Shown: positions 1 through 40,834 of the stretch, one piece after another
Layout of the letters: each line of letters starts with the position of its first letter
How positions within the stretch are numbered: position 1 is the first letter of the stretch
Notes under the pieces: generated by a model
The model's database searches: none
Told to the model about the DNA's origin: nothing
What the model saw: the letters and a program-made list of their open reading frames with translations, nothing else
Position numbers and translations under genes: made by a program
Source of the DNA: a virus
Taxonomy: Duplodnaviria; Caudoviricetes
Direction: 5' to 3' (one strand)
Length of the DNA stretch: 41,266 nucleotides
Virus record (IMG/VR): IMGVR_UViG_3300005077_000040
Location: 1-41,266 of that record

Positions 1-98
1 AGCATCCCAATGGTTAATGAATTCGGTGAAACGCCCTGTGCGGACCCGCACGCAGGGTGTTGTGGGGAGCGGGAGAGAAAAACTCCCGCTTACCCGAT
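1..98 (+). mobile_element. 3' end (domains V-VI) of a group II intron, class IIC / IIC-attC-like; the 5' part lies outside the window
   Basis: DV hairpin AACGCCCTG-TGCG-GACC-CGCA-CG-CAGGGTGTT (30-61) with CGC catalytic triad and CG bulge, typical of IIC. DVI stem AGCGGGAG/CTCCCGCT with a bulged A near 92, and the canonical ...ACCCGAT end at 98. Confidence 0.85.
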
Positions 99-279
99 TA
101 GTTTGCGGGATGGGGTTTGTGAATGGACACAAGATGAATTTGATGAATACAATATATGGGAAACTGATTGCGGAAAATCTTTTTGTATTGAAGATGGAAC
201 ACCCACAGAAAATGATATGAATTTTTGCTGCTATTGTGGAAAAAAATTAAAACAGCGGGTGGTGAGGCAGTCAAACTAA
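99..279 (+). CDS. 3' part of a small Cys-rich zinc-ribbon-like phage protein, 5' end interrupted by the intron
   Basis: The first ~30 codons of ORF 10..279 are intron sequence. The remainder, CEW...WETDCG...FCCYCGKKL, resembles small phage Zn-ribbon proteins. The stop codon overlaps the AACTAAC inverse core. Confidence 0.55.
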
Positions 280-354
280 CAATGGAGATAATCGGAATGA
301 CAACTAAGAGCGAAGCGACGCAGGCAGCACGGCCGCTTGAACGATTTGTTATGC
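274..354 (-). repeat. attC-like recombination site (top strand on minus)
   Basis: The minus strand reads GCATAAC-AAATC-GTTCAAGCGG...CCGATTATC-TCCATT-GTTAGTT, a R''-L''...L'-R' layout with the extra C in L''. Confidence 0.75.
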
Positions 355-566
355 GCTTGCGGCTGTCGATCGTGAAGGCAGTTTGCCGCCTACTGCTGCC
401 GCGCAATGTGTGGGTAGGCCACCATTTTGGCGCCTACACGCAGAAATGGTCGGTACATCTTGGCCGATTGGACAGTCGCGGCGTGCTACAAGGGTTGAGT
501 GACCGCGATGCAGTCGCGCGGAACAGCTTGCATAACGCGCCGAAGGATGCGGCGCACAAGCCCTAA
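297..566 (+). CDS. Hypothetical cassette-borne protein
   Basis: In frame with ORF 225..566. GGAG at 284-287 precedes ATG 297, and both lie inside the attC-like site. Confidence 0.4.
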   Translation: MTTKSEATQAARPLERFVMRLRLSIVKAVCRLLLPRNVWVGHHFGAYTQKWSVHLGRLDSRGVLQGLSDRDAVARNSLHNAPKDAAHKP

Positions 567-649
567 CTGACAATAAAAACTTAAAGCGGAGCATAAAATG
601 TCAGATTTTAAACACAGCCCTTCGGTCGCTGTTAATGCAAATGTTAGCC
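530..649 (-). repeat. Degenerate or hybrid attC-like site(s)
   Basis: GCATAAC (530-536) complements GTTATGC (348-354). CCCTAAC lies at 561-567. The minus strand from 649 reads GGCTAAC-ATTT-GCATTAACAGCGAC, an R''-L'' arm, but the partner arm is poorly conserved. Confidence 0.5.
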
Positions 650-669
650 ATCCTAAGCAAAGGAGTTTT

Positions 670-981
670 ATGGCTCAGAGAATTCAACGCAAACGCTCGA
701 AGGGATGGAAGATGCCGCCAAATACAATCTATGTTGGTCGCCCTACAAAATGGGGAAACAATAACAAGATTGGGGATCCACACCCGTTTTTTGAAAATCA
801 TTTTTGCACGCTTGATGATGTAATCTGGCTGTATGAGTGTGATCTAAAAGCGATGGAAGCAGCGGGAATACTCGATGATTTCCTTGCGCCATTACGCGGT
901 AAAGACCTCGCGTGCTGGTGTCCACTTGATAAACCGTGCCATGCCGATGTACTCATACGGTTGGCCGCGGTTTTGTCATAA
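670..981 (+). CDS. DUF4326-like phage protein
   Basis: Motifs QRIQRKR.KGWKMP..TIYVGRPTKWGN and LRGKDLACWCP..PCHADVL. AGGAG RBS at 661-665 precedes ATG 670. Confidence 0.85.
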   Translation: MAQRIQRKRSKGWKMPPNTIYVGRPTKWGNNNKIGDPHPFFENHFCTLDDVIWLYECDLKAMEAAGILDDFLAPLRGKDLACWCPLDKPCHADVLIRLAAVLS

Positions 982-999
982 TTGAAACCGTTGTTAGGC
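964..999 (-). repeat. Half attC-like site (R''-L'' arm only)
   Basis: The minus strand reads GCCTAAC-AACG-GTTTCAATTATGAC-AAAACCGCGG. The complementary arm is missing. Confidence 0.5.
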
Positions 1000-1022
1000 A
1001 AAATAAACATAAGGAGATAGAG

Positions 1023-1355
1023 ATGTTAAATTTCTTATTTGGTATCATTGTAGCTGTTATTTTAATTATTGTGCTGGCAATTTGGTCCAGTAACGATAAT
1101 GAATGGTACAATGCAATTGCTGGAGTTATGGCAATGTTATTAGGAGTTGTAACTATAATAGCAATAACTTTTTATTTCACATTAATTTGGAAATGGTGCG
1201 CATCTGAACAAAAAGCAATCATCATTAATCGAGAATACGGTACAAATTATACAAGAACAGAAGTATTTTACGCCAGTGACGTAATAGATACAATTCGGGA
1301 ACTTGATAGAGAACGAATTGAATTAAATGGCAATCTTATGAAAGATAAAAAGTAA
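1023..1355 (+). CDS. Small membrane protein (2 predicted TM helices)
   Basis: AAGGAG RBS at 1011-1016. Two hydrophobic stretches. AT-rich cassette bounded by GTTAGGCAA (993-1001) and TTGCCTAAC (1356-1364). Confidence 0.75.
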   Translation: MLNFLFGIIVAVILIIVLAIWSSNDNEWYNAIAGVMAMLLGVVTIIAITFYFTLIWKWCASEQKAIIINREYGTNYTRTEVFYASDVIDTIRELDRERIELNGNLMKDKK

Positions 1356-1357
1356 TT

Positions 1358-1418
1358 GCCTAACACAGATTTCAACTTGACTCAGCCTATGGCTTCGCAG
1401 GTTGAATTATAATTAGGT
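1358..1418 (+). repeat. attC-like site (61 bp, forward; R' core degenerate, ATTAGGT)
   Basis: GCCTAAC-ACAG-ATTTCAACTTGAC...GCAGGTTGAAT-TATA-ATTAGGT: an imperfect palindrome with extra unpaired bases on the left arm, directly after a stop codon. Confidence 0.75.
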
Positions 1419-1426
1419 GGCTTTTT

Positions 1427-2050
1427 GTGAATATCTTAGTTGCGTGTGAGTATAGCGGTATCGTTCGGCAAGCGTTCGTGGCTTTGGGTCATAATGTCTG
1501 GTCATGCGATTTACTGCCAACAGAAATACCAGGTCAGCATTATCAAGGCGATGTGCGCGACATGCTGAAAGAAAATTGGGATTTGATGATTGCCCATCCG
1601 CCTTGTACACATCTGGCGGTCAGCGGAGCGCGTTATTTTTACCGCAAGCAGGCAGAGCAAGCCGAAGCGCTGGAGTTTGTCCGCTTGCTTATGAATGCGC
1701 CGATTGAACATATTGCCATTGAAAATCCAATCAGCGTTATTTCATCTCGCATCCGCAAGCCAGACCAAATCATTCAGCCCTGGCAGTTCGGGCATGGTGA
1801 AACGAAAGCAACTTGCTTATGGTTGAAAAACCTGCCAAAGTTACATCCAACAAATATTGTGGACGGCAGAGAGCAACGAGTACATAAAATGCCACCGTCA
1901 CCCGATAGGTGGAAAGAGCGTTCCCGCACGTTCCAGGGTATTGCAAGCGCAATGGCGGCACAATGGTCACGCCACCTAACAAATGCGTGCACCCGACCCG
2001 CCTTCGGCTCTGGTACGCAAGGCGATTCTACGGTCACAACGGGCGGGTAA
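1427..2050 (+). CDS. Short phage DNA cytosine-C5 methyltransferase-like protein
   Basis: N-terminal SAM-binding-like LVACEYSG, catalytic HPPC, ENP motif, QPWQFGH...K.T.LWLK and RSRTF.GIA.AMA.QW. The last ~25 aa read through the downstream attC. Confidence 0.8.
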   Translation: MNILVACEYSGIVRQAFVALGHNVWSCDLLPTEIPGQHYQGDVRDMLKENWDLMIAHPPCTHLAVSGARYFYRKQAEQAEALEFVRLLMNAPIEHIAIENPISVISSRIRKPDQIIQPWQFGHGETKATCLWLKNLPKLHPTNIVDGREQRVHKMPPSPDRWKERSRTFQGIASAMAAQWSRHLTNACTRPAFGSGTQGDSTVTTGG

Positions 2051-2065
2051 CGCTTGCCCTTATAT
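1974..2065 (+). repeat. attC-like site (92 bp, forward; R' degenerate, CTTATAT)
   Basis: ACCTAAC-AAAT-GCGTGCACCCGACCCG...CGGGCGGGTAACGC-TTGCC-CTTATAT. GCCACCTAA (1971-1979) is the exact complement of TTAGGTGGC (1413-1421) at the cassette start. Confidence 0.75.
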
Positions 2066-2304
2066 GTCGAATTTAAAATTTATCCAGGTGCAACGAACAA
2101 CACATCAACGGAGTAATTTATGACAGCCCCACATGATCCAACAACCGCTACGGAATTGCTCAGTTGCCATCTGCGGCAAATGAGATGAATGCTCATTCGA
2201 TGAAATATAAAACAGTTAGTTCCAATTGCGTCGTTAACCTTCAACTAAAATAAAAGGCGTAAACACCACGGGCGGTGTAAACGCAATCCTCCCTCGCCAA
2301 ACAG

Positions 2305-2339
2305 TAAGGGCACGCGCGCGGCGTGCCCTTATCTTTTTT
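2305..2339 (+). terminator. Rho-independent terminator between convergent transcription units
   Basis: Perfect 11-bp stem TAAGGGCACGC/GCGTGCCCTTA followed by TCTTTTTT. Confidence 0.75.
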
Positions 2340-2355
2340 AATATCACTGATTTTT

Positions 2356-2721
2356 TTAACGCCTCGCCATCCGTACAATAGCTAAAAACTTAGCCATCTG
2401 GCTCACCAGCTTCAGCCCTTCCTCCGTCACCAGTTCAGCATATTCCGACTTAAACGCCATTTTCTCAATAATCGCCTCAAGCCGCGCCCGTTCTTCAGGA
2501 TCCATATCCGCGTACTGCGCAGGAATCTTCTCAGCGCCGCTCACCGCGGCAGGCAGTTTTACAAAAGCAGGTAAAATGTGCATAGAATCCGACATCCACT
2601 GCCACCCATCATTCGTTGCCCCATCCACCCGCGTTGCAAAATCAGCAATAAATTCCAAAGCGTCCTCAATTTCATTGACACCCTCTTGAGAAATATCATC
2701 TTTCATAGATTTCTCATCCAT
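2356..2721 (-). CDS. Hypothetical helical phage protein (last gene of late operon)
   Basis: ORF 2356..2745. GGAGG RBS precedes ATG 2721. Confidence 0.7.
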   Translation of the reverse strand: MDEKSMKDDISQEGVNEIEDALEFIADFATRVDGATNDGWQWMSDSMHILPAFVKLPAAVSGAEKIPAQYADMDPEERARLEAIIEKMAFKSEYAELVTEEGLKLVSQMAKFLAIVRMARR

Positions 2722-2735
2722 AACATCCTCCACAC

Positions 2736-3065
2736 TTAACGACAATAATTCTTGTGATTTAACTTATAACAAAGCCGACGTTCACTAATCCCAAGCAACA
2801 GCGCTGCCTTTTTCTGAACACCACCCGCATAGCGCATCGCCAAATCAATCGCCCGACGCTCTAAAATATCGAGATTAAGCGTATCCATCCCAGGGAAAAA
2901 ATGCCCATCACCGCCAGTCTTCACATCCCAGTCAGCACCAATCACATCCCAAACCTCCTCAACCGTCCAAACGTGCCGCCCGCTACTTGTAATCAACTTC
3001 TGCAATCGATCAAGCAAATACTCCCGCATCATGCTATCGGTGTACGCTCCGTGCTCCGTGCTCAT
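2736..3065 (-). CDS. Stand-alone Fis/NtrC-type HTH DNA-binding protein
   Basis: C-terminal LNLDILERRAIDLAMRYAGGVQKKAALLLGISERRLCYKL matches the HTH_8 (Fis-like) pattern. Confidence 0.75.
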   Translation of the reverse strand: MSTEHGAYTDSMMREYLLDRLQKLITSSGRHVWTVEEVWDVIGADWDVKTGGDGHFFPGMDTLNLDILERRAIDLAMRYAGGVQKKAALLLGISERRLCYKLNHKNYCR

Positions 3066-3075
3066 CGCTTTTTTT

Positions 3076-3609
3076 TCAATTCAGCGCATCGGGCCAAAAC
3101 TCAAACAGCCACGAAATAAAAAACTCATAATCGCTGGCCTTCTTCCGTAAATCCTCGCCATAAAGCTGTACCCTTACATTCTCAAGCCGCACATCGCATG
3201 GCCCCTGCTCCGATTCCGCATTTACCCGAAACGCCATCTTAAATATCGGTTGCCCATTAAGCCCGCACGCAGGCTCGCCCTGGGTGCTGTCCGTATTAAA
3301 CGAAACCTGTAACCGTCCAGGCTCAACCAGGTTAATCACCTCGTGATGAAACACCCCGTAAACCTCAGTCGAATCCGCCAGATAAGCAATCCTGCCAGGA
3401 TTGTAAAACAGAGTTGCACCAAGCGCCGAAACACAGCCAGTATATTTCGCCTTATACTGAAATTGAACAACAGTGTCCACCGTGTCAATTTTAGCAATGC
3501 CATTTTGCGCATACAGCTCAAACGATTTTTCACACCCACCAACAGCCAACAACAACGCCGCCAGCACCGTAAGGGCACGCAGCAACGCACCACGATTCGT
3601 CCATTTCAT
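3076..3609 (-). CDS. Predicted lipoprotein with a cohesin-like domain
   Basis: Signal peptide ending LAVGG-C (lipobox-like). The beta-rich pattern VSALGATLFYNP...INLVEPGRLQVSF...NGQPIFKMAFRV...DVRLENV resembles cohesin modules. Confidence 0.55.
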   Translation of the reverse strand: MKWTNRGALLRALTVLAALLLAVGGCEKSFELYAQNGIAKIDTVDTVVQFQYKAKYTGCVSALGATLFYNPGRIAYLADSTEVYGVFHHEVINLVEPGRLQVSFNTDSTQGEPACGLNGQPIFKMAFRVNAESEQGPCDVRLENVRVQLYGEDLRKKASDYEFFISWLFEFWPDALN

Positions 3610-3680
3610 CGCCTTTGTCCTTTTATTAAATTAATAATTATCAATTACCCATTCACAATTCACAATTAAAATGGGTAATT

Positions 3681-4604
3681 TTAATAGTAGTCCCCCAACA
3701 CCGAATCAAACTGCACCATATCCAGCAAATCAATAATCCCGTTATCTTCAAAATCAAACACCGAATCAAACAACCAGTGCCCTAAATAACTCCCCAGCGC
3801 CGTATCAAAAGCAACCATATCCAGCAAATCAATAATCTTGTCGTTATTCCAGTCACCCTTATGCTGCTCACTTGCCTGGCCAGGGACAACATACGCAAAA
3901 ACTTCGTTAGAATACCCGCTCTCATTACCAGCCGTGTCATAAGCCGTCGCCGCAAAATAATACGTCGTATCCGCCCAGAGATCAGTCAGGCATACCGCCG
4001 TCGTATCACCAACATCCTCCGAAAAAACATAATCCCTCGACCCAAAACCATAATAAACCTTATACCCATCCAGATCGGCCTCGTCATTCGCGTCCCAGGT
4101 CAGGCAAACATGCTCAATACATAGCGTCTCAGGCACAGCAACACCCTGCCAGCGCCATTCCACCCAGTCAAGATAAATATTGCGGTCATACTCACCGCTG
4201 AAGTAATCATTGATAAAAGAAAACCGCCAGTCACCGACAGAGCCAACTGACAAAACAAGCGAATACTCAGCCCAGTCGCTATCAGAAACTTGCAACGTAT
4301 CGCATCCTCCAGGAAAACGAACCTCAACCAGGCCATCAGCGCCAGGTACGTAATCTTCCCGCGCACGCACAACAACCGTGCAACAGCCAGATTTATTGAT
4401 TGTTATTTCTGCCGACCCGTTCCCGTAAAACGCCAACAAAGAATCTTCAACAACAACATTCCCGCTGATTATATCAAAAGTTTCAGCCTGCAATCTGTTT
4501 TCTGCAATCTGGCATCCGCCATCAGAAATCCGCCATCCGACAATTTCTAATACAACAACCAGCGCGATAAACGGTAAACCCCGTGCCAAACCAAAACCCC
4601 GCAT
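3681..4604 (-). CDS. Exported modular protein: carbohydrate-binding-like domain, fibronectin III and dockerin-like double EF-hand
   Basis: AGGAG RBS before ATG 4604 and an N-terminal hydrophobic segment. FINDY...DRNIYLDWVE is CBM60-like. LTWDANDEADLDGYKVYYG...YYFAATAYDTAGNESGYSNEV is FN3. GDWNNDKIIDLLD and DFEDNGIIDLLD are duplicated Ca-binding loops. Confidence 0.75.
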   Translation of the reverse strand: MRGFGLARGLPFIALVVVLEIVGWRISDGGCQIAENRLQAETFDIISGNVVVEDSLLAFYGNGSAEITINKSGCCTVVVRAREDYVPGADGLVEVRFPGGCDTLQVSDSDWAEYSLVLSVGSVGDWRFSFINDYFSGEYDRNIYLDWVEWRWQGVAVPETLCIEHVCLTWDANDEADLDGYKVYYGFGSRDYVFSEDVGDTTAVCLTDLWADTTYYFAATAYDTAGNESGYSNEVFAYVVPGQASEQHKGDWNNDKIIDLLDMVAFDTALGSYLGHWLFDSVFDFEDNGIIDLLDMVQFDSVLGDYY

Positions 4605-4861
4605 ACCAACACTCCTATCAAATATAAATGCTCCCGCTTCGGATGCCACACATCATTCAAATGATAATCATACCAATAGACCATCAGAAAATACCCGCTC
4701 GCCACCCAGCATGGAATCTCCCCAAGCCACTTCACACAATGCCACACAAAATCGGCCCAGGCCAGCGCATCCGCCGCGCCTCCAAACTTCAGCGCATCCC
4801 CCAGCGCATCAAAACAGAATCCAAGCATCATAAAAACCAATAATCCAAACATATCCTTCAT
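4547..4861 (-). CDS. Small membrane protein (~3 TM)
   Basis: 104 aa ORF with three hydrophobic segments and a GAGG RBS. It overlaps the next gene by 58 nt. Confidence 0.6.
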   Translation of the reverse strand: MKDMFGLLVFMMLGFCFDALGDALKFGGAADALAWADFVWHCVKWLGEIPCWVASGYFLMVYWYDYHLNDVWHPKREHLYLIGVLVCGVLVWHGVYRLSRWLLY

Positions 4862-4901
4862 CCAACCCTCCGCGTCAACACAGTCAACAATGTCAGCCCT
4901 G

Positions 4902-5228
4902 TCATTTGTTCTCTACAAAAAACAAATAAACAACACCCATTATACCAGCTCCTATTCCAATCAGTCCCGCAATGAAGTCCAAGACATTGAATCCATCATT
5001 TCGCAGCCCGTCTTGCCACTCCCAGGCCAGATTGATCCCGATGCAGAACGCAGCCGCTAACGCCGACGCTGCCAAAACAAGCGCCCCTGTAACAGCGCCC
5101 ATGTGCAGCAACATTAGCCCGAAAACCAGCCAAAACATAATCTGAAATATGACAAACTCCCTGGCCATGTGCAGCCAGAAAGTTGGGTCATATTTGCAAA
5201 TAAAACGTAGTTTAAAATCATCGAACAT
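4902..5228 (-). CDS. Small membrane protein (~3 TM), possibly holin or VanZ/YfiM-like
   Basis: Hydrophobic helices with H...WE..D...GF...DF residues. The start overlaps the upstream stop (TAATG). Confidence 0.65.
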   Translation of the reverse strand: MFDDFKLRFICKYDPTFWLHMAREFVIFQIMFWLVFGLMLLHMGAVTGALVLAASALAAAFCIGINLAWEWQDGLRNDGFNVLDFIAGLIGIGAGIMGVVYLFFVENK

Positions 5229-6160
5229 TAGAATTGTTCCCAGTTTGTTGCGTCGTAAGCGATATATGTTACATTAGAACCAGCAGCCAAAGTAACAGCA
5301 GTATTGACTCCTGCTCCTGTATTATCACCAGAGGCAGGCCAAATTTCAAGCTGATTAGCTCCATTGTTGATAATTCTTATAATCATTCCAGCAGCCGCAC
5401 TCGGAAGTGTTACAGCATCATCAGCCGTTCCAACAGTCGCTATTTCATTTATATTACTTGTCAGTGCACCATCACCCTGTCCACCAGGATTAACAGCCGC
5501 GATTCCAGCAGTTACAGACTGCCGCAGAATACCCATGCTGTCTATTTCACAATATTCCCCTGCCGTTCCAGTATCCCCCATTTTCAAGCTGCCATCAGCA
5601 CCACTTGCATTTGCACCGATGTCGATCAGAATGTCATATGCAGGTTTGTTATCATTCGAAATTAATAGGTTTGAATTTGTATAAGGTTTAAACGCATTTG
5701 CGTAAGTTGCAAAGCTGTACACTGTTGATAGTGTTAAAACTCCATCTCCACGCCAGTGATTATTGACGTTATTGTATATCCAGTAATCTGATGAGCTACT
5801 AATAGCAGTCATTCCACTTAAATCAATAGCTTTTAGGTTTCCAGCAGTTGTTGCAGTAATAGCTATAAACGTTAAGCCATCTGGGTCAATAACTACCTGT
5901 TCAGAAGCCGCGCCATAAAAAGTAGTTATTCCTTTAAATGTTATTCCATCAACGCACTTCATAATAGCATCAAGATAAGTTCCATCCCCAATATATAAAG
6001 TAGAATCACTGGTACAAAAGCAAAGTCTACCAATTGCTTTATTTACATTTGAAGTGTCACTTACAATTTTTACACCAGGTTGAATTCTAAACACAGGTGA
6101 ATCATCAGCAACTAAATACATCGGTATTGTTAACAGTATTAAAACTAATAGCTTTTTCAT
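5228..6160 (-). CDS. Signal-peptide-bearing tail-fibre/adhesin-like protein
   Basis: MKKLLVLILLTIPMYLVA signal peptide. GRLCFCTSDSTLYIGDG resembles the N-terminal motif of phage hyaluronidase/fibre proteins. C-terminal VTLPSAAAG...I.P...NW domain. AGGAG RBS. Confidence 0.65.
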   Translation of the reverse strand: MKKLLVLILLTIPMYLVADDSPVFRIQPGVKIVSDTSNVNKAIGRLCFCTSDSTLYIGDGTYLDAIMKCVDGITFKGITTFYGAASEQVVIDPDGLTFIAITATTAGNLKAIDLSGMTAISSSSDYWIYNNVNNHWRGDGVLTLSTVYSFATYANAFKPYTNSNLLISNDNKPAYDILIDIGANASGADGSLKMGDTGTAGEYCEIDSMGILRQSVTAGIAAVNPGGQGDGALTSNINEIATVGTADDAVTLPSAAAGMIIRIINNGANQLEIWPASGDNTGAGVNTAVTLAAGSNVTYIAYDATNWEQF

Positions 6161-6195
6161 TTCAAATCTCCCTTTATTTCATGATGAAACACAGG

Positions 6196-7872
6196 TTACC
6201 ACGCACTTAAAGCAGCACGTTTCCAACCACCACTTGCACATTTAACATAAATGTATGAATTATCCCAGCAGATATTTCCAACACTTCCGTTTAAATCAGC
6301 GCTACTGGTTGGTGTATAGTTCGTTTGTAGCCTAAGTTGATCATAACCATTAGCCGTGTAAATATGAAGTTGTGCTGTTGGACTTGTTGAACCTATTCCA
6401 ATTTGGCCTCCATACTCCCACGTCATGACTTGTGTCCCTGGAACCGTAGGACAAGATGTACTTCCACCAGCAGAAAATATCATCATATCGCCGCCGTTAT
6501 TCGTCCCCATTCTCCAGTCATAATTAGAACTATTATTAATACCCCAGTGCATCCATGCTCGATACCCATTGCCAGTTTTACGTATAGAAAAGGCATCACA
6601 GGTATCTCCTTCAACAGCCGCCACAAATACAGGCATACTGTCTGCGCTAACTCCACAGAAAGCCGTCCAAAGTGAATCACCTGGGTCAACCATATGGCCA
6701 ATGCTCCAAACTGGAACACCTACCCCAGGGCCTTGTATTGTATGTCCATATTTAGTTAAATTCCAAACATCCATTCCAGCAACAGGGTTGTAAAATGGTA
6801 AATATCTATGGGCATAATCCAAACCAAACTCCAAATATGGTACGCCCTCAACATCGAAACTAATGTTGTTTACATTAATTTGTGTACTATCTTTATCAAA
6901 GTGAAGTGCATAAGAAGAAGAAGGGCTATGCGGAACTGGGTCAAAATAAGTCTTTAAATTTGGTCGTGTCGAAGCATTATACTGGTACATAAAAACTTTA
7001 TTATTCATGTGAAAAGGATATTCTGGGTCAGTCGTACCAATTCCGAAGCTGTCCGTCGTCGAAACAACATACAAATCTTTGCCACGCTTCATTATGCCAC
7101 TGCCTTTTGCGGGGTCTAAATAATAACAAAGCCACTTATTCCCATTCCAGTAAAGTCCGAACATATCGCCAGCCGATGGTGTAATATCCACTCCGCCACA
7201 GTCAAGGCCAGAATTATGTTGTATAGTAGTATTAACATCGTTTATATAAAGCAAACAAAGTTTCCTACCACTCGCTGGTGGGCTGTCAAAATAAGTAATT
7301 GTTGTCGGGGACGTGTTTGCAGTTCTGAAACACACATACCCATCAACAGAAGGGGTGGCATCACCATCAGTAATATTTGTATTTTTGTAAAACGGGTTCG
7401 CAACATACAAATTATCGCCAATATTTTTAATGCTCTCATCATCAGGGTTGTTTGTTACACTCCCGCCGCTTCCAATGTAAGCCAAAGACGCCGCAGTCAG
7501 CTTTGCCAGCGAAATCAAGCTATCCGCCAAATCACCTTGCTCAATCGTGCCTGCTACAATTTTAGAAGACGTAATAGTGTTATTAGCTATTTTACCATCA
7601 GTCACAGCGTAAGCACCTAGTTTATTCTCAGTCACAGCGCCCGTGTTTATTTTACCCTCGGTAACATTCAAATCTTTTATCTTCGCCGTGCTAACGCTTG
7701 TATCCCCCAGCGCCGCGCTCGTCGCCTTGTTATTCGCGTCCAACTTTTGGAAAAACGTCGTCACATTCTTTCCTTGAACCTTCAGGCTATCAACTCGCAG
7801 CGCCCGCTTCTGCCCAAACGCCCCAGGCGCAGCCAGCATTAAAACCAGCAACACCAGCAATAATTTCTTCAT
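6196..7872 (-). CDS. Signal-peptide-bearing tail-fibre-like protein
   Basis: Signal peptide MKKLLLVLLVLMLAAPGAFG. 10-aa V(T/S)xxKI repeats, GIGTTDP / IGIGSTSPTAQLHI fibre motifs, and C-terminal GNICWDNSYIYVK...WKRAALSAW. Confidence 0.7.
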   Translation of the reverse strand: MKKLLLVLLVLMLAAPGAFGQKRALRVDSLKVQGKNVTTFFQKLDANNKATSAALGDTSVSTAKIKDLNVTEGKINTGAVTENKLGAYAVTDGKIANNTITSSKIVAGTIEQGDLADSLISLAKLTAASLAYIGSGGSVTNNPDDESIKNIGDNLYVANPFYKNTNITDGDATPSVDGYVCFRTANTSPTTITYFDSPPASGRKLCLLYINDVNTTIQHNSGLDCGGVDITPSAGDMFGLYWNGNKWLCYYLDPAKGSGIMKRGKDLYVVSTTDSFGIGTTDPEYPFHMNNKVFMYQYNASTRPNLKTYFDPVPHSPSSSYALHFDKDSTQINVNNISFDVEGVPYLEFGLDYAHRYLPFYNPVAGMDVWNLTKYGHTIQGPGVGVPVWSIGHMVDPGDSLWTAFCGVSADSMPVFVAAVEGDTCDAFSIRKTGNGYRAWMHWGINNSSNYDWRMGTNNGGDMMIFSAGGSTSCPTVPGTQVMTWEYGGQIGIGSTSPTAQLHIYTANGYDQLRLQTNYTPTSSADLNGSVGNICWDNSYIYVKCASGGWKRAALSAW

Positions 7873-7951: not shown

Positions 7952-10900
7952 TCACCTCCCCACAACTTTCCGCCGCACCAGCCTTTTTTTCTTTTTCTCC
8001 TTATCAGAAACCTTCACAGCATTCGGATTCGGCTCACTCACCGACACCTGAAACCCAAGAGACTTCCCAATCGACTCAAAAGCATCCAATTCCCCCATCA
8101 TAAAACTGAACATATTCTGGAACTGCACAGGCAGAGAACCCCGCGCCTGCGCCAGCAAGTAGCTCGGCATCCTCGAAAAACCAACAGGATGCCAGCCCAT
8201 ATCCTCATACTGCGACTTCGTCAGGCTAAATTGCAGCTTACCACCCTTATCGTCGCCTTTTCGGAAACCATGCTTCGCCGAACTCGTCTTGTACACCCCC
8301 TTGTAATGCGGCGCCCAACTCTCATCGTCAAGCCCCAGAAGCTCATCCCAATGCGTAAACGGTCGCCCCTTCCAATTGCGCCCCGTCGCAATCTCAAAAA
8401 ACATCCTGTAAATAACACTCCCCTTGTGGTGCATCGCCACAAAAGGATTAATATCAAACTTCCCGTCAGGCGCATTCGGAAAAATAAACTTAATCGGATC
8501 GCGAAAATGCCCAACAGTCGAGAAATACGCCCTGTTTTCCTTCCCACCGCCCAGCAAACGGTACAGCGGCGTAATGTCTACCTCCAGCCACCGTAGCCAA
8601 CCCTTATCCCAGGCAGTCTTATATCGCCGCACAATCCGATCAACATAACTCTCATCATCCTCGTCGTCATCCCTGTCCCAATAAGCCAGCAGCACATTCG
8701 GCATAACCGTCGCCAGAAAAATCCCGCGCCACATCGTCCGCGCCCAGAACTGTTGATAGGCCCGTCGCTCCGCAGCGCTCCCCGCTTTGATCGCCTTCAC
8801 CATACTTCGAATATTACTCTCCGTCCAGTCAGGCGCCAGCGCAAACAACCTGAAAATATGCTGCACCGTCTGATCGCGTCCCTGCTTCCCCGTCATAATC
8901 GTCCGCATCCGCTGCAAATGCAGCCCGCCAAAATCATCATTCACCAAATTAGCGACAATCTCCGCCCGCTCATCAGGCGAAAGCTGCGGCTCCTTCTTCA
9001 GCAGATTGCGATACTCCAGCAGCGCCGTGTACGCCTTCAAGCCAGCGCCAAACCGATTGAACAAACTATGCGCCTGCCGTTCCTGAAACGTAATAATCTT
9101 CTCCCGCACCGCCTTCGGAATCAGCATTTTTTTCATCATATTATCCGTTCGATCCCGATAATACGTCGCCAACTCATCCCAATCCTGAATCCTGCCAATC
9201 GTCAGCCCGTTGCGCACCAAAAGCTCAATCTCAGGCGTCATCTCCTGCACAGCCCTCAGCCCCTTTTTGTACGCCGAAATAATATTCAAATTTTTCATGG
9301 AGGCCAGCGCCGCACCGAACAAATAACTTCTCGAAAACGCCAAATGGTGGAACAGCGACGTTTGCAAAATCATCGCCTTAATCGCAGCATTGTAATTCGT
9401 AATCGTGTTAATACTAGGCACACCCTTCAGCTTGCTCTGCCCCAGAATCCGATTTAATTCATCGGCCACATCATTCGGCGCATACAGCGGTTCCCTCCGC
9501 AAAATCGCCCCGTCCGCCGTAATAACAAAATTCTTCCCCAGCTTCGGAACAAACTTCGTCTCATCGATATTCTTCCCCTCGATTCGTTCCGAAACTCTCT
9601 GAATCTCCTTCTTTTTTTCCTCATTACCGCTCGTCGCCGATTGCAGCTTATTAATAACAACCGTCGCCTCATTCTCAGACATCCCCCGCGCCATCAACGC
9701 CTCTTTCGTGACAGTCACCAGCTTTTCCATCGGCCCGCTCGCCTTACCCGTCTTCGCCTTAGCTGCCATATCCGCAATTCTTTCCAGCCGCACCTTGATC
9801 CAGTCGATCCGCACCGACCCGCGGTACGTATACCACGAAAAATTGGGATGATCAATCCGCTTGCTTCCGACACCCTGCGTAAAAGAAAACAGCTTACTTC
9901 CATTGCTCATCGTAAGCCTCATCCCCTCGCGAATCAGCCGCTTATGCTCGATGACATTCGCCATCTCCGCCTTTAAAATCGCCAGGTTATTTGTCGCACC
10001 GTGAATCTTCAGTTGATACCCATGCGACCATGCCTCCATAATCGTCCCAAAAACTCGCTGCTTCGCGTGCCGCGTCGTCGTCCCAAACTTGCGGAAATAC
10101 TCATCGCTCTGCTTATCATCAAAATCATAAATGCGATTCACATAATTCTCAAGCACATTATGAATCACCCCCTCGTCCATCGACTCCACACCAATCGCCT
10201 GATAAAGTTTCGAAATATCCTCAGCAATCTGCTTCTGCTCATCCGTCAAATTCTCAGCCAGCCCAATCAACCGCCGCTGCTCATCCGTAAACGTATCCCA
10301 GAACTTCTCCCGATGCTCAGGGTTCCGCTTCATATCGATATAAAGATGAATCGCCTCGTCAATATCGTGCCACTTCTTTTCCCACGTCGTCAAAAGAGGC
10401 TGCTTAAATCGCTCCCCACTCCCAAACGTCGGTTTTTTCCCAATGCTCTTCTGAATCCGCTCCTGAATCTTCTGCGCCTCAATCCATGCCTGCTGTGTCT
10501 TCCAGTCGCGTTCCCCAAACCAGTCGTTTTTCAGCTTCTCATAAGCCGATGGAATCTCGGGATAAGCCTCATGCTCGTCCTTCGGCTTTCGCTCCGCCTT
10601 CGCCCTTCCCATCGCCTTATACATAGCAGGAGCCGCGGCCCCACCATACTGAAACTGCGGCGACTTTTCCGTAAGCATAGAAAAAGACGCATCACCATTC
10701 TCATGGTATCGAACGATAACTTCTTCCCAACGCATAACGACATTCGAATCAGTTGTATAAGGCGTCAAAGCCGACCGTCTGTCATCATCAAACCACCGCC
10801 GCAAAACAACATCCCGCGCCTCAATCTCCCCCGCAAGCATCGTATATTGCCCCATCGCCCGCGTATTTATATCGACCAGCTTATTGTGAAGCTGGTAAAT

Positions 10901-13900
10901 CCGTTTTCGCATCTTCTCAATCTGACCCTGAATAGCCCTTCGATCCTTATCAGATTTCGCTTTATCGCGCTTAACAACCAATTCCAGCGCCCGATTCTTC
11001 AGCTTCTTATAAGCCGAAAACATCCGTTCAAAATTGGACGGCAGAAAAAATTCAACACGCCCGCCTCGCGCAAACCCCTCAATGTGCTGGATAGCGTGCT
11101 GAACCTCATGCAACAAAATCTCCTCAGCCCTGGCCGCGTCATTCGCAACGACCTTCATTCCCTTAGTCACATGATTGAACCCACCGTTCGTCGCCTCCCT
11201 CGCCATCGTCGGATAAATAGTAATATCAACCTTGTAATTCTTCAACTCAGGATAAGCCTGAAACAGCGCATAATGCGTCACAACATCGCTCAACTTCCCC
11301 ACAAAATAAGAAGTTTTCGCATCGGCCTTCTCCCATCCCTGGCCCCGCGCCCGCAGCTTAAACGCCCCATCGGGAATCTCAAATCGCCATTTCCCATCAA
11401 GCCCTCGGAACCAGCCCGTCTCACGACGAATCCTGTCAATCGTCATATCCCGCCGCGTCTGCGACTCCGCCACAATGTCCAGCCGTTTAGCCTCCTCCTC
11501 GGAAAACTTCTCCCCATACATCACCTTCGACATCAAAGCATTATACTCATCCTTCTCCTCGTTCGCCCTGCGAATCAACGGCCCAAAATGCCGCTCCATC
11601 GCCTTAGCCTTCAAAAGCGTATGAGAGTCAGCCGTCCGTGCCCCTTGCCCCGCATATTGAAACTGCGGAAACCCCTCATAAAGCGCCGTCTTCCGCATCG
11701 CATCCGTAATCCTAATCGCATGTACGGGCGGCCCTTCTTCCGCCTGCGATCTACCAGCCCAAATCCGCAATCGGGACACTTCCCCCCCAAACTGCTTCAC
11801 AAACTTCCCGAAATAACTCGGCAGCTTCCTGTCATAAAACTCAACCATCCCCTCGCCGCCAATCACCAGGCTATCTCCCTCAATAACGCCCTTCTTATCA
11901 CCAGAATCGAGTATCTGCTTCGCCATATTTTTACCAAGAATATCGCCAAGCTCAGATTTATCAGCGTCACGGTCAAAAACCCTTAACCCATTTTTTTCAC
12001 CATGAATAGTTATTTTATCTTCATGGTAATACCATTCAATTCTGTCCACCAGTCTCCGCGTCATGTCCTCATACCGTCGCACCTGCTCCACCCCCGTCGT
12101 CCATGCAACATAATCAAACCCATTCTCCGCCGCATACCGCAAAACATACTTAAATCCAAGCAAGCTCCACGCCTTCTCATCCTTAAACGGAGCATCAGGG
12201 ACAGTATCGAAATGACGATCTGTCGCCTTTGCACCGTATTTTACTAATTTCTCCTTTGCTGCCCCAATAGCGTCCGCCTCTGTATCCGCATTATCAACAT
12301 TCATTAAATAGTTGCCGTCCCTATCATACACATCCCAAACCGAACTCATTGGCGTGCTTATACGAGCCGTCAATCCTTCCAGATAATATTCCACATCAAA
12401 ATTTGGATTATCCCCATACCCCTCTTTTTTCCCCTTTTGATGCCAATCGCTTTGCACTTCCTCAATCAGCAATATTCTATTATCTTTTCCCTCATAATCC
12501 GATGGGCTTGGCTTTTCACCTATTTTGCCGCCTTCAACCCAATTATCATAATCCAAATTAAATTGATCTGCGCCACCTAGCCGTCTTTGTTGCCGCTCCG
12601 TAAACCGAACGTGCATCAAAACATTCACATCATCAGACCAATGGCCGTGCGTAAACGTCGGCTTTTCATCCTCGCTAAATTTTTCTTTCAGGTCTTCCAG
12701 CTTCGCGTCATCCTGGGCAGTCCGTTTATTTCCCAAATTTTCAAGCCTGCGCATCTCCTCATTGTCGCCAATAGTAAACGTTGATGCCATCGGCAGCTTA
12801 ATTAATATCTCCCGATAACCCTCATAAGGCATCGGCGAAATAAAATTCTCACCCTCATACTGCCCGCGAATTTTGACCTCTTGTTCAAGTCGTTTCTCAA
12901 GCTCATCAACCCGCTCGTCATAAATGCGTTGATACGTCTCATCAAACAAATCATAAAGCTCATCCTCATCGGCGACTCCAAGCCGCTCAATATCCGCCTG
13001 CACCTCATCCTCGCTCGCATCCCCGCGATGATAAAATAAATCATGATAATACGGCGCATTCAAATCAAGCTCACTGCCCACCTCGGCAAGCGTATCATAC
13101 TCAATTTCCTGCAACGCCTCAGCCTTTTTCTCCTCAAGGTCAATACGGTCATCAAGGTCATCAAAGACTTCTTTCCCATACTTCCGAGTCACATCCTCAA
13201 CAACCAGCGTCACCTTATTCCGCGCAACAAACCCCAAAAGCTCATCCTTCGAAACGTCATTTTTCCCAGCCAGAAAACCATCCAGATCAATCCAGGCCAG
13301 CTCCGCATCCTTCACCCCGTTGCGAACCAGCCAATTCCTCACCGCACCAGCCTTCATACTTTTCGGAAACCGCCTCTCAACAACCCTCTCCGCCTCCGAA
13401 AAATACACAGGCGCATACCCACCCTCAGACCGCAGCACCCTATCTTTCTTTTTTCCCGTCGCCTTCCCCGCGTCAATCCTGTCAACAACGTCAACCACGT
13501 CCCTCTTTTCTTCACCACTGTCAACAACGTCCCTCTTTTCTCCACCCCCGTCAACAACGTCCTTTTCTTCTTCCCCCTTCCCAATCTCCGAATCCCCAAA
13601 CAACGTTTTCCCAGCCTTCCAAAATTCCCCACCCCTCCCTTGCATTCGATAGGCCACCATCGACGAAAACTCATCTAGGCTTATCGGAACACCAACCAGC
13701 TTTTTAAACGCAACAGAAAGCCTTAAAATGGCTCGTTTCAACCACGCCAAAAATCTATGTTTCTGTTTTCCGTGAATTTCCGCACCCTTCTCACCAATAG
13801 CCTGCACAAGCGCCTCATCCAGGTAGTCAGAATACCCCGCATCCTGCGCGTTTTTCGCGTATCGCGTCCCCTTTATCAAGGCGATCCCATGGGCATAAAG

Positions 13901-16900
13901 CTCAGGCTCATGCACCCGCAAATAATTCATAACAGGATGGGCAAACTCATGGAACACCGTGTCCTTATTCATCCGCCGCACATCGATATAAATCTTATTC
14001 GTCTCAGGATCATAAAACCCCAAAGGCGCCCTCCCCTTAGCAATCTTCCCCTGCGCCTGAAGCGAAGCAACCCGCGCATCGAACATCTTCGTACTTTTAA
14101 CAACAGCTATCCCGCCAACCGCCTTGTGCAGCATCTCCGTCGCCGTGTCTAACCACTCCTCATCCACTTGCTGCGCAGTCCCTATTCCCTTGCTTTTATA
14201 ATGACTAATTCGGGATTCCTGCACCCCCTGCTCACGCAAATCAACAATGCGCTCAACCTCGTCTGCAACTCTACGAGACGGCATCAAAAATCCAGCTATT
14301 TCATTGCCAGACATAATAACAGCGCCCATCGAATTATCATTCACCATAAGAGAAAACTTGGGCACAATCTTCTGCAAATACGAAACCTGCACTTCAGGAA
14401 ACGCAACGTAATTACCTTTGTCAGATAGAAACACCGCCATTTTGTTGTTACTACCACTCTTTGATAAAAAACTAAAAACATATTTGCTTTTAACCGCATT
14501 AGGAACAACGGTATCATATAAATGGTCATACTTGACATTGCGGTTACGAATATCAAACGTCTCAGCAATATTTTTTAGCTCTTTAGGTACAAACTTGCCT
14601 TCAAGCGCCCACTTCCCATTTGTTAATGCACCACTTTCGTTTTTATGCAATGTATCTTTTTTTCTTAAAAATTGTGTAATTGCAGCCTTCGGGTTCAAAG
14701 TCTCCCGATACCTGCCACCCATCTCTTTTTCAACCGCCGAAGCCTTTGGCGCTTTTTTCTGTTTAACGCCCTCAAACTCCACCGTTTTCGTTTGAATAAC
14801 CCCGCCTTCTTCCTCAAACTTTCTACGTGCCTCATCCTCCATCGCAGGTGTAAGGCTTATTTCCTTTTCCTCGTTAAAATACGTCGTTTCAAATTCAGCT
14901 ATTTTGTTGGTAACTTCCCTAAGCTCATCAGCCGAACGCTTCACCTGCTTTTGTATATTGCGAATCTTTTCATTGTCGCTGTCAATATTTTTATTGGCAA
15001 CATCAATCATTTTTTCCAGAAAAGCCTTGCTTTTATCGTACTGGGCCTGGCGTTTTTCTTCATCTTTAATTTTATCATCAGGAGTAAGATTGGCAAGTTT
15101 TTCCTGGCGCTCCGCCAAATATTTTTCATTTTGGTTCAGGCTGTTATAAGCCCTGCTCAGCCGACTGTTAAATACTCGCTCCATATCCCGCGTATTAGAC
15201 CGCTCTCGCTGCATTCGGTCATAATCAAACCGCAGCTTCAACAGCTCCTTTTTAACGGGATCAGTCTCCATCTCAATAGCAATCAGCTCGGAAGATGGCA
15301 TAGCCCCGCCAACCATTTCCTCCTCAGTCGAAATTTCCCTGTCAACATCTTTCTCCCAAAGCGCCTCGTTCCACCCTTTTTTGTGCATCACAATATTAAG
15401 CGAAAGATTGTCAAAACTCCCGCGCATCAGCATGAGATGGGTTATCACAACATCATTCTCGTTCCCATACCGAACGCCACGCCCGTGTCGCTGCCTGAAC
15501 GCACCAGGTGTATACGGTATGTCAAGGTTCCAGATATGCTTCGTCTTAACCTGCAAATCCATACCCTCGCCCATACTTGCAGTCGTGCCAATTAATACCT
15601 TTATTTTACCATCATTGTAAAGGTCGGCAAGCTCCTGTTTTCGTTTATCCTTTTTCTCCCCGCTAACAGAAGATTCATTCCCATTATTCGGGTTCGTTAC
15701 TTCCTTGCCATTCATAATCCCGATCTGTTTTGCCTCAAACCCGCGCTTGGTCAATTCATTTTTAATTTCACGATGCAAATTCTCTGTCAGCTTACCAGCA
15801 TCCACCTGTGTATGGCCAGAATTATCCAAAAATATCAAATGGCCATGCTCTTTGTTTTCTTTGAAAGCAGCCTCAATTCCGTCTAAAACAAATTCCAGCT
15901 TGTCATCTTCACTATTGAACGTCCGCATGTCAATTTCAATTCCAGCGTGCTCACCGCCGTAAAGTCGCGGATCAACCGCCGCATTGCGGCCACCCGTGTA
16001 AATTGCCAGAAGTGTGTCACCCCCTGGCTGTCTTTGAAAAGCCTTTGGCACAGCGCCTTTTCGCCTGTCCAAATCAGCCATCACAGCCGCCACAAGGTCG
16101 CTGGAATTTAAAAAATGCTTTAACTGGTTCTCGGCAGGCACTTCAATATGTGGCATCGCCTCCATCGGAATATAATCGATATACCTGTCCATAATATTCC
16201 GAAGTTCAGGCGCATTAATAATCGATCTTAGAATACTTTTCGGCTTGTGCTTTTCAGGGTCTTCAACAGTGCCCAAATTAAAAAACATATTTGCAAAACT
16301 TCGGTCGTCGCCAACCCCGTACTCATCTAAAATTTGATAATCCATGTGCCGCATCATCGTGTAAATTTCCATCGGCTTATTTGGAGTAGGCGTGGCCGTC
16401 AACATGAAAACATTGCTGTTATTGTTCCGTTCGGCAATGTAATTTGCCTTAAATCGAAAATCATAACTCCGCGCACTTGCAATCGTTACATTGGTTTCGT
16501 CTTTACCGCTCGCATTAAACCCGAACGCTATTCCTAAACCAAACTTGTTAAGTTCACCGCGAATACCAATATTTTTAAACGCATGGGCCTCATCAGCAAC
16601 CAGCATATCAATCCCAAGTTTATCGAACGTCAGCCGTGTATCTCGTGGCATATTACGAATGGCAGATACATACCGTTCAATCTTCTCAAGTAAAAGTGCG
16701 TATTTGCGCCCAGCTATCCCAGGGTCGTCCAAATGTTCGAGCACAACCGCGTTAATAAACCGAAGTTCATCGTCAACAGGAAGTTTCACATGGGCAAATC
16801 CCTCGTGACTAATCAGCACATAATCCGCGTTAGTATTGGAAAGGTCAAAAAGTTTCTTTGTCCGCTGATCCTTGCTTAAATTTCCAAGATTAATTATTTT

Positions 16901-19900
16901 TGCATCAGGAAAAAGCGTCTTAATATCCCGTTCCCACTTTTTAATCGTTTTTGCAGGAACCACAAACATCGGCTTTTTTGCTGCGCCACGCTTTTTAAGA
17001 ACCCTGGCAAGCGCAATCGAAGCAAACGTTTTTCCGCCGCCAACGTCGTGGGCGTTAATCCCCTTGCCCTCATAAAAAGCCTTAATAATCCACTCAATCT
17101 GATTTTTTCTCAAACGAATGGGAGAGTTCGCCTCAATCTCGTTTAGAACATCCTGGATGAGATAAATAGCCTTGCGGTAATTCGGTTTCACATACCCGTT
17201 AAATTTCGAATTGTATACAAACTCAATCTGTTCAACCAGCGCGGCATCTTCCTTAACATTATTAAGAATGCTTTGCTTTATTTCGTACAGATGTTCTTCA
17301 GCTTCGCGCATTCGGGCCATATAACTGCCCATCGGCTCCACAGAACCATCATCAAACCATTTTCGGCTCACAAGCACATGGTTGTTTAAATATTTTTCAT
17401 ATATATCGTCATCATGTACCCAGTGCAATTGTTTGTTTTTATCGGGTACCTGCCGTGCGGTAAACCAGCCTTTATTTTCAATCAACGGGTGAATCCATGT
17501 TTCATTCCCCCTGAAATCAATCTCGTCAATCGGAAGCGCATCTGGCCGAACCCGCTCAAGCTCGGCAATTTGTTTTTTTAATTTGTCTGCAACAGTCCCG
17601 TCGTCTCCCCACTTATCTAAAATAGCCTGCGCCATTTTAATTTTATCATACACAAACCCAGAATAATACAAAATATCATTCTGTACAACAGTCTTATCGC
17701 CAAACTCAACAACAGAATACCCGTTCTTAAGCAATTCCTGAAACTCGCTGTCTTTAATCAAATCCGCATCAGCGATATGAATAAACCCCTTATTATCCTC
17801 GCTCGCAATCGCCCTGTCAATAAGCGGCGAATCTTTTGTCGCCTCCTTGCGCCCGCTTCCCGTGTGCCGCACTCGTTCCTTAAAAACATCCGCAGGCTCA
17901 AAGTTTTCATTAAACGTACTCGTCAGCTCATTGAACAACGGCATTTCTTTGTGCATTTTAAAAAATCCGTGCAGTTTTTTATCTGCAATCGGGGGCGTTT
18001 TAAACTGATTTTTATAGTCGTTAATCAAACCAATCCCAAGCTCAGAATCGTAACTATCACCCATTTCCTGGAATTCAGTCGCCGCGTTTTTAATCCGATT
18101 TAACATATCAATTTTATCATAAAGCTCACCAGTAAGCGGCTTATAAATCTTGGCAAACCCATTATGAAGATCATTAAATGGAATATACTTATCCATCACA
18201 TATATCTGTCCAGAACTGAACAAAATATTCATTTCAAAATTAGAATCAACAGAATGATAATATTTTTCATTCCCGTCTTTATCCTTACCCATAGGAAGAA
18301 AAACATTTTGCTTTACCATAACATTCGGATTCTCTTCCATCCAGCCCTGCAAATCATGGTAGCTTTCGGGAATACCACCTTCTTTTTGTTTATCCTTTTC
18401 TTTCTGCTTTTCCTTCAAATACGGTGTGTAATCGACAGATATATCGTCCAGCCGCGCCTCTCCCTCAACAACATACATCGGCTTACCGCCATACAGCTTA
18501 TCAACGCCCTCAACCAGCTCGCCCAAAATATTTTCAGGATGAAGATTATAATAAGAATTTATTTTAAGCCCGTTTTCTTGGGTGTCAACAATCTCAAACG
18601 CCGCGTTATTCTCTGCCATCTCAGGCCGCGCCTCAACGCCGTCAGGACGTTTCTGCATAAAAATAATATCAACCATCACGTCCGTATGCGCCGTTTTTGT
18701 AAAATGGCCCTGCGGCAGCCTGAATGCGCCGATAATATCAGCCTTGCTCGTAATCTCTTTTCGGGTTTTTTTGTCTAATTTATCCATCGTGTAATGGGAG
18801 GAAATAAAAGCAACAATCCCGTCGTCACGAACGCGGTCCAGCGCATGTATAAAATAAAAATCATGCAGCGTCTTAATATCTGGCCTGTTCCGAAGCCGTC
18901 CCGCTCCGCGTTCCTCGCTGAACGGTACGTTGCTCACCACAAAATCATAGCCAGAATCAACGAAATCTTCAAAAGATAAATGGTAATGTTTCCCCTGGGG
19001 ATAAAGTGCAGATACTACCTTATGGTTGGTCTCGTCAATATCTATCGTCGTCCATGCAAGCTCAGGCCAGTTGCCAACAAAGTTGCCGCCGCCAACCGAT
19101 GGCTCCAACGCAGTTTTAGGCTTAAATCCAGCCTTTTCCAGCGCATTGTAAATCGCACGAATTGTATCATAATCCGTGTAATGCTGATTAAGCGCCTCTT
19201 TCGTCCCACTGCTCAGGCCGCCTTCGCCAGTATATTGACGTAATATGTCCTTATCGTCGTCTGTTAAATCGGAAGATTGTTTTGAAAGGATTTCCTTAAC
19301 GCGGGAGTTGATGCTGTTTCTTTGCCCTTTTGTAAGTCGCGGAGATTCTTTTTCTCGGAGGGAATAATTTTGTACCACACGTGGCTCGGTGGTTGGTTTC
19401 TCACCACGTATGTCAGTTGCGCCTGGTACCACTGGCTCGTTTCCAGCCCCGCGTACAGCTTCGCTAATTCCTCCAGCGGCCTGCTGTCCTTCCACTTGTT
19501 CTGTTCCAGTGGATACCTCAGCGCCTGGCACACCTGCCCCAATTGCAAATTCAGAATCGCGTACAACTTTGTCCGAACGCTCACTTCCTGGTTTTCGCTC
19601 CCCTGCTCTACCCTCAATATTCCCTCCAGGACTAACGCTCGTTGTTCCTTCGGTACCCGTTGTGCCAGTTTGTCGTCCAGATTTTCCTGTTTCATCAGGT
19701 TTCTCCTTATTCTCTGTTTCATTATACGCAGATTCTTTTCCAATAGTTTCAACATCCACACCCTCGACAACACGTTCCGAATCCATCCCCGAATTATCCA
19801 AACCAGGATAATGCCGCGCACCCAAATACATCGACCTCAAAAATGGCCGAATGGCATCCCCAAAAGTCTCAACCATCTTTCGGGCAAAGTCCACAAACTT

Positions 19901-24355: not shown

Positions 24356-24360
24356 TTTCG

Positions 24361-40268: not shown

Positions 40269-40311
40269 ATACAGCATAACAAATAAAATATTAGCATACT
40301 AAAAGGCACCG

Positions 40312-40644
40312 ATGAAACACACAACGTTATACTTAGACGAGGACGATCTTAGAATCGCCGCCTACATGCTTAAAATAAACAAGACACGACAATCGATAAG
40401 CAGCTACATAAGACAATCCATTCACAACTTAATCATAAGCGGCACCCTACCCGCCGCCTCTTTAGAAAAAATGCCAGCAGGCTCAAGAAAACTGCACGAA
40501 TACGCCTGCCCCCTCTGCCTCACAACAATAGACAGCGCAAACCTTATAAAATCAACCCCCCTCACCCCCTCCCTGATCCTTGAAATCTGGGAATGCACCA
40601 TCTGCTCAAACTTTTTCACTCTCAAACGTCAAATAAAAACATAA
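40312..40644 (+). CDS. Putative regulator: ribbon-helix-helix-like N-terminus plus C4 zinc ribbon
   Basis: MKHTTLYLDEDD...SISSYIRQSI fits the RHH pattern. CPLC...CTIC forms the zinc ribbon. Confidence 0.55.
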   Translation: MKHTTLYLDEDDLRIAAYMLKINKTRQSISSYIRQSIHNLIISGTLPAASLEKMPAGSRKLHEYACPLCLTTIDSANLIKSTPLTPSLILEIWECTICSNFFTLKRQIKT

Positions 40645-40760
40645 TCTTAACGTTTTTTTCTTTCAAGTCAATCCTGCCAACAACGTCAACCCTGTCAATA
40701 AAAAAAAACCACCTAACCCATTATTATTTTTACCCACAAAAAAAATAATTAAAATTTTCC

Positions 40761-40789: not shown

Positions 40790-40834
40790 GTAGTCGTAAT
40801 CACAAACACTACCACTTTAACAAGGAGAACTAAA

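Follow-up and report, generated by a model that had tools for sequence, protein, structure and literature searches.

The locus described here raises the question of why the 3′ end of a group II intron stands at the very start of a phage contig, in the same sense as the gene behind it, and what kind of site the intron has entered. The stretch of DNA analysed, hereafter the window, comprises 41,266 nt and spans the complete assembly of the IMG/VR virus record IMGVR_UViG_3300005077_000040. A phrog/profile scan of its ORFs revealed a tailed phage, with matches to terminase, portal, and major head and tail proteins on the minus strand. Five short genes occupy the plus strand within the first 2.1 kb, a run that ends at a terminator-like hairpin (2304-2332, +) facing the structural genes; the hairpin was found by a consensus scan only, which returned five such elements versus 3.2 expected. 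The early region of the phage is probably incomplete on the contig, because no replication genes were recognised among the window ORFs scanned. The window also encodes a 5,477-aa protein of the polyvalent-protein type with SNF2/helicase and LPD23 domains (7952-24385), and its right end (40760-41266) displays a promoter-like sequence, recognised by eye, and two small plus-strand genes.

The first 98 nt of the window are the end of a group II intron. The Rfam check suggested in the original prediction gave a clear answer, RF00029 matching 29-98 (+) with 49.1 bits and an E-value of 8.4e-07 as the sole Rfam match in the window. Domain 5 (D5; 29-61, +), delimited by Rfam alignment and fold, is 4 nt below the Rfam consensus length and carries the catalytic triad CGC at 32-34, which aligns to AGC in the consensus. 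Domain 6 (D6; 63-98, +), placed by Rfam, by its fold, and by the divergence of a second copy past position 100, has a bulged A at 92, 7 nt from the intron end. Both domains together fold with -40.9 kcal/mol (z -5.99), equalled by 0 of 200 shuffles. The intron-encoded protein (IEP; RT/maturase) is represented by its last codons and a TAA stop at 15-17 (1-17, +, frame 3). The second copy, on the run X1 contig, is identical to the window at 4-100 and then passes into a different 3′ exon, readable as sense or antisense, which fixes the intron end independently; bases 2-3 of the window are unlike X1, as a contig-end error or a variant. This copy extends ~1.4 kb on its upstream side (record positions 148-1568); translated in the IEP frame, 30 of its upstream letters yield a C-terminal W-x-K-x-H motif that resembles the one in attC-lineage IEPs. 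The window thus begins inside the intron, with D1-D4, the 5′ exon, and the RT of its own copy beyond the contig start. The right end of the contig, a hairpin followed by ...TTGTA, was weighed as this 5′ exon in a circular genome and rejected, since it has no intron 5′ sequence, A follows TTGT, and a terminal repeat is absent. An ORF-less intron, one of the two forms originally expected, is unlikely as the founder, given the IEP frame end in the window. The ORF at 10-279 (frame 1) was considered as the IEP and rejected, the IEP frame stopping at 17. Beginning 5 nt ahead of the IEP stop, this open frame crosses D5/D6 and is in frame with gene 1; it could yield a leader-fused product from unspliced RNA, but its hairpins are very stable and it is probably incidental.

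The intron was probably repeated in the sample, and the window probably breaks here for that reason, because a start 87-103 nt ahead of this intron end is common among contigs, as in 12 of the 18 listed. No exact match to the intron was found in viral contigs, and a more specific intron pattern had no match in 185,579 genomes. Identical introns were absent from the 28 metagenome and 23 genome D5 matches and from 401 genomes of the closest relative's phylum, and neither the intron end nor a lineage IEP gene had a match among GenBank phages. No RNA dataset was among those listed as containing the intron end, which does not bear on its expression. The closest D5-D6 (67/71) belongs to a Syntrophaceae bin, a similarity too small for a host assignment.

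The original prediction placed the intron in class C, among those inserting at attC sites, and this assignment is supported. Besides the CGC triad, a class C feature (PMC7923331), the window D5 is identical at 36/36 positions to that of the L063 intron from a class 1 integron. It matches 50 attC-lineage D5s, which were largely retrieved by the window's own D5 pattern, at 34-36 of 36 positions, whereas the ten generic class C introns compared reach 24-27/36, so that an identity as a generic, terminator-targeting IIC intron does not fit. Nine IEPs from D5-matched loci, two of them integron introns, were separated from ten generic class C IEPs by a branch with 100/100 support in a tree with a midpoint root only. 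The window intron therefore appears to belong to the attC lineage, a membership by proxy through the D5-matched IEPs.

The junctions of this lineage show what kind of target is to be expected. Leaving out two loci without a recognisable end, the 3′ exon begins with T in 51/52 cases and with TA in 42. On the other side, GT closes 17 of 19 5′ exons, 15 of them as part of TTGT, and all 17 score as R″-type, i.e., as bottom strand. The hairpin score exceeded the threshold in 12 of the 19 and was borderline in two more; 7/19 were below it, which counts against our main reading in that not every such exon is an attC. The intron 5′ end had been expected to be GTGCG; the lineage has GTACG more often, with GTACGCC or GTGCGCC in 18 of 19 rows and GTGTGCC in one. 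Among bacterial copies, the gene beside the intron 3′ end is antisense in 33/43, sense in five, and unclear in five.

The window junction agrees with these statistics. The intron ends with ACCCGAT (92-98), an AY end as in group II introns, the 3′ exon starts with TAGTTTG (99-105), and GT plus 99-105 is the 9-nt reverse complement of 272-280 (CAAACTAAC), a 9-mer that occurs once in the 41,266 nt. The junction and its complement had been read correctly from the sequence. A 9-nt complement of GT plus seven letters within 200 nt was found for 4 of 3,955 other TA positions of the window, a chance of about 0.1%, and among 43 distinct bacterial lineage insertions, used as a positive control, the downstream complement reaches at least 7 nt in 25 and at least 9 nt in 11. 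With TA at 99-100 and this 9-nt partner, the window follows the lineage in having a 3′ exon that starts with T (IBS3) within an attC core, and the predicted insertion at a GT|TA core, its GT being putative in the window, is supported by both lines of evidence. We infer that 99-105 (minus strand, as the top strand of the site) is the rest of a split core, the R″ box of a reversed attC. Its partner at 272-280 (-), overlapping the gene 1 stop, is the putative far core of cassette 1, the R′ end of site A; it was placed by the complement, the arm classifier being ambiguous here (-0.5), which also counts against the main reading.

Complementary cores were found at the ends of further cassettes, with 9 nt for gene 1, 9/9 for gene 4, and 9/10 for gene 5, while gene 2 showed no simple fit. 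Cores matching at both cassette ends are the trace of a circular intermediate made by an integrase. From its 9-nt match to the far core, the cassette appears to be older than the intron, which would have entered it in finished form. Since the R box would be disrupted by an intron within R″, this one probably arrived last and now locks the cassette. The proposal that the insertion helped to create a cassette is consequently not supported at this locus.

All genes with a recognised family in the run (genes 1, 3, and 5) lie downstream on the intron's strand. Gene 1 (100-279, +) encodes a small Cys-rich phage protein (phrog_10312, E 5e-10) with 4,842 relatives at E<=0.001, and its sense is that of the intron. 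It has no ATG 3′ of the intron; TTG at 103 is the sole start and has no obvious RBS, and in its relatives few residues suffice ahead of the first Cys. Splicing would be needed for normal translation of gene 1, because the missing 5′ exon probably holds the initiation signals of this gene. ORF 2 (297-566, +) has no family match, gene 3 (670-981, +) matches DUF4326/phrog_464, gene 4 (1023-1355, +) is a predicted membrane protein with no family above the cut-off, and gene 5 (1427-2050, +) encodes a DNA methyltransferase (phrog_757, E 3.7e-76). An antisense ORF at 98-406 was rejected as a cassette gene, having no Pfam match and crossing site A. No integron integrase was present among 30 window ORFs scanned.

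The attC-like sites of the window were scored with an arm classifier and a covariance model, after a first attC heuristic had been dropped for missing most known sites. The classifier was trained on 31 of 42 bacterial attC candidates chosen by eye and oriented by the canonical intron rule; it is thus partly circular, with a leave-one-out result of 30/31 per side. The model was built from 25 of the 31 sites. Its matches in the window have E-values of 0.33-2.6, every site being degenerate and none individually significant, and four of seven fall within the first 2.1 kb. Site A (274-354, -), which holds the RBS and start of ORF 297-566, is a degenerate attC that both classifier and model call reversed (right arm +12.4; 15.1 bits, E 0.33). 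Site B (518-649, -) is long and probably reversed according to its arms (-6.6/+1.3), with a hairpin and extra bases on the plus-strand 3′ arm; the model gives instead a weak forward match at 561-649 (E 0.86). Half site C (967-999, -) consists of an R″-type arm only (+10.7, yet below background for the R″ model, and with no model match), and its core complements 1356-1364 over 9 nt. Sites D (1358-1418, +; E 0.48, left arm +10.4) and E (1974-2065, +; E 2.6, arms +16.1/-7.4) are forward, each with a degenerate R′. The statement that the interrupted site is reversed like its neighbours thus stood in part, A, B, and half site C scoring reversed and D and E forward, all of them degenerate.

The two forward neighbours count against the main reading, as does a stray forward match at 40274-40332 that scores equally (E 0.41, arms +8.3/-9.3), overlaps the start of ORF 40312-40644, and may be chance. 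The core at 348-354 has a 7-nt complement in the inner arm of site B (530-536), a better match than that offered by the outer core of site B. Cores are in frame with the next gene in 5/5 cases in the window and in two or three of eight in relatives; the argument is weak, because a stop always occupies one of the three frames and either of the remaining two is used in relatives. The relatives also led us to reject a rule by which the GTT core would always encode an in-frame Val.

No close phage relative or intron-less allele was found using gene 1 or the capsid protein as query. Related phages provided clear attC sites, with E-values down to 3e-7. In the 80 best of 170 viral loci that hold a gene-1 relative, every one of the seven model matches at E<=1 is reversed versus the plus-strand genes. 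All seven reach E<=7.3e-4 and lie in four loci, two of which are near-duplicates; the other 76 had none. In one locus (L099, 2982-3848), the four attC sites are strong (E 1e-4 to 3e-7) and form a clean array, each being reversed versus small phage genes. In the gene-1 relatives P0034, P0057, P0059, P0066, P0079, and P0123, we take the Pro-Asn-led tails or leaders to resemble translated attC bottom strands. No group II intron end was found in the 80 viral loci.

The intron lineage itself was found elsewhere in viral contigs. The 40 and 37 loci retrieved revealed seven copies with lineage ends and TA exons, five of them sense (L146, L147, L212, L229, and L218) and two in the canonical antisense orientation (L197 and L232), the latter pair counting against the main reading. 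L146 is a full-length intron of 1,899 nt among Bet, exonuclease, and methylase genes (arms -4.3/+8.9). L147 is full-length as well (1,896 nt; arms -4.7/+16.7) and is followed by a methylase, a reversed attC, and an integron integrase. L212 is a deleted copy of 473 nt ahead of a DnaB-like gene (arms -7.9/+6.4). In all three, the 5′ exon scores as bottom strand, ending in TTGT in L147 and in TGGT in L146 and L212, and plus-strand phage genes lie on both sides. In both L146 and L147, the first core of the site supplies the TAA stop of the upstream gene. Their IEPs group with integron introns (SH-aLRT 87), support for L147 inside the clade being modest. The integrase gene of L147 (IMGVR_UViG_3300037518_000399, 6471-7565; TIGR02249, 415 bits) lies inside a phage gene run.

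L229, a 42-kb phage contig, carries 98 nt of an L147-type intron at its end with a TA exon, a layout like that of the window; the exon leads into a sense ORF that has an RBS, and a complement of 10 nt is present. One intron type is therefore present at two different phage sites in L147 and L229. L218 is a short remnant, half of D5 plus D6, with the same sample number as L146. The remnants L212 and L218 suggest that lineage introns in phage sites decay by deletion. The window copy may be dead too, because these two of the five sense viral copies are deleted remnants.

From these results we consider it likely that the group II intron ending at position 98, whose D5 is of the attC lineage, made a normal bottom-strand insertion into a reversed phage attC; it thus lies in sense with the phage genes and would be transcribed and spliced as part of an early operon. 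The intron end is real and of a known lineage, and its undescribed geometry recurs in at least four other phage contigs. Judging from relatives, the missing 5′ exon would fold as the bottom-strand hairpin of an attC and end in GT, with the cut at GT|TA inside R″. The interrupted site is likely to be reversed, by analogy with 3/3 complete phage analogues. In phage arrays, attC would precede its gene on the coding strand, so that bottom-strand targeting yields a sense insertion; in such a reversed cassette the attC bottom strand is the coding strand, and therefore the intron would land in the phage transcript. The sense orientation, the main consequence of the locus and absent from the original prediction, would follow from cassette polarity with the targeting rule unchanged. 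The cassette would have existed first, and a 1.9-kb insert in its R box would block excision by an integrase at the DNA level. Splicing is predicted to give gene 1 back its leader and start, and the particle of spliced intron RNA and protein to home to other single-stranded attC bottom strands.

The most serious alternative accepts the 3′ junction and assigns the 5′ exon to something other than the attC of this cassette, the window copy being a recombinant of two intron copies, an insertion behind a terminator-like hairpin, or a remnant with an internal deletion that has lost splicing. Two lineage copies (L003 and L028) have TTGT 5′ exons with clearly no attC hairpin, the model of Léon and Roy, as summarised in the available text of PMC7923331, has these introns also using terminators and recombining, and deleted phage copies exist in L212 and L218. 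However, the hairpin test was passed by 12/19 lineage 5′ exons with two more borderline, an attC hairpin is present in all three phage copies with an intact 5′ end, and the identical X1 copy runs on for ~1.4 kb upstream, which together make this explanation unlikely.

Alternatively, cassette 1 could be an ordinary forward one whose preceding attC was hit by the intron in its R′ core, on the top strand. Either orientation would produce the complement of 99-105 with 272-280, the arm at 277 does not classify, and sites D and E are forward. Top-strand insertions do exist: in L148 (IMGVR_UViG_3300027694_000279, 296-6383) a forward attC array holds two tandem class C introns, sense and in the top strand, and one non-IIC-attC top-strand case from Enterobacter cloacae is cited in the text of PMC7923331 available to us. 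The L148 introns are sister to the attC clade, though, and cut before the core and not at GT|TA, whereas the GT-ending lineage 5′ exons uniformly score as bottom strand and site A, the nearest, scores reversed. We regard a forward cassette as improbable. That host DNA was mis-assembled onto the phage is hardly credible: the contig opens with the intron end and searches gave no further copy of this phage, but the junction falls exactly between an intron 3′ end and a core with a 9-nt partner, a break at this distance is usual for the repeated element, and L229 has the same layout in another phage.

Our main reading, a canonical insertion into a reversed phage cassette, combines elements that are already known separately, namely the intron lineage, phage attC arrays, and phage group II introns; their combination and geometry appear to be new. 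According to the available parts of PMC4424553 and PMC7923331, IIC-attC introns are without an endonuclease and insert after the folded attC bottom strand, and the target rule given in those of PMC7923331 and PMC3001079 is TTGT/T in the R″ box of the bottom strand. With S.ma.I2, E.c.I7, and Kl.pn.I1 (PMC3001079, PMC7923331, PMC4424553, as far as available), the window shares the CGC D5 identical to an integron copy and an IEP ending just before D5, as well as the R-box GT|T cut and the bottom-strand target, both proposed for the window, the target being observed in the phage analogues. The copies described there lie antisense to cassette transcription, whereas the window copy is sense and on a tailed-phage contig. 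Sense introns are known from UHB.I2 (IIB) and the E. cloacae non-IIC-attC case (accessible text of PMC7923331), which share the co-orientation with cassette genes. They achieve it through the top strand or another class, while a canonical lineage would do so here through a reversed cassette.

Phage attC arrays have been reported as CALINs (Qi et al. 2023, PMC9892861). In the available text, they share with the window small phage genes including a methyltransferase and attC-like spacers; the missing integrase among the window ORFs fits this likeness, and one phage there has mixed site directions. No account of sites systematically reversed versus genes was found in that text; the window sites are degenerate candidates. 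The word "intron" has 0 occurrences in its main text. A survey of phage group II introns (PMC12350094), as far as accessible, curated 20 and reported matches in 9,229 IMG/VR genomes. The L146 and L147 contigs are raw matches in the accessible Table S2 and L212 and L229 are absent from it. Neither attC nor integron occurs in the main text of PMC12350094, and attC is absent from the supplement; the one class C example discussed in its available parts sits after a terminator, unlike the attC reading given here. An attC-lineage intron in a reversed phage cassette was not found in the literature searched, although the primary papers of 2008-2009 may list phage or sense cases, and the publications using "IIC-attC" included none on phage cassettes among the matches listed.

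The reversed phage cassettes flip the geometry of a known parasite, so that an intron that targets as usual ends up on the transcribed strand. There, splicing matters to the downstream gene, and phage promoters can drive mobility. The window itself holds only 98 nt of intron; L146 and L147, as complete natural copies, make the geometry directly testable. In the accessible text of PMC3001079 (Léon et al. 2010), S.ma.I2 is described as untranscribed, antisense insertion is suggested to limit mobility, and the scarcity of attC-targeting introns in integrons is called perplexing; cassette formation by IIC-attC introns is a published hypothesis (Léon and Roy 2009, summarised in the available part of PMC7923331). 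Rather speculatively, phages with reversed cassettes could be the niche in which IIC-attC introns are expressed and spread, hopping among phage cassettes and host integrons, and could even let them build reversed cassettes, although we hold this broader proposal to be doubtful. The early operon would transcribe the intron while replication exposes single-stranded attC hairpins, and a unit of attC bottom strand, intron, and sense gene could be spliced and copied back into new reversed cassettes. If true, such a niche would explain the mobility of a lineage reported to be untranscribed in an integron.
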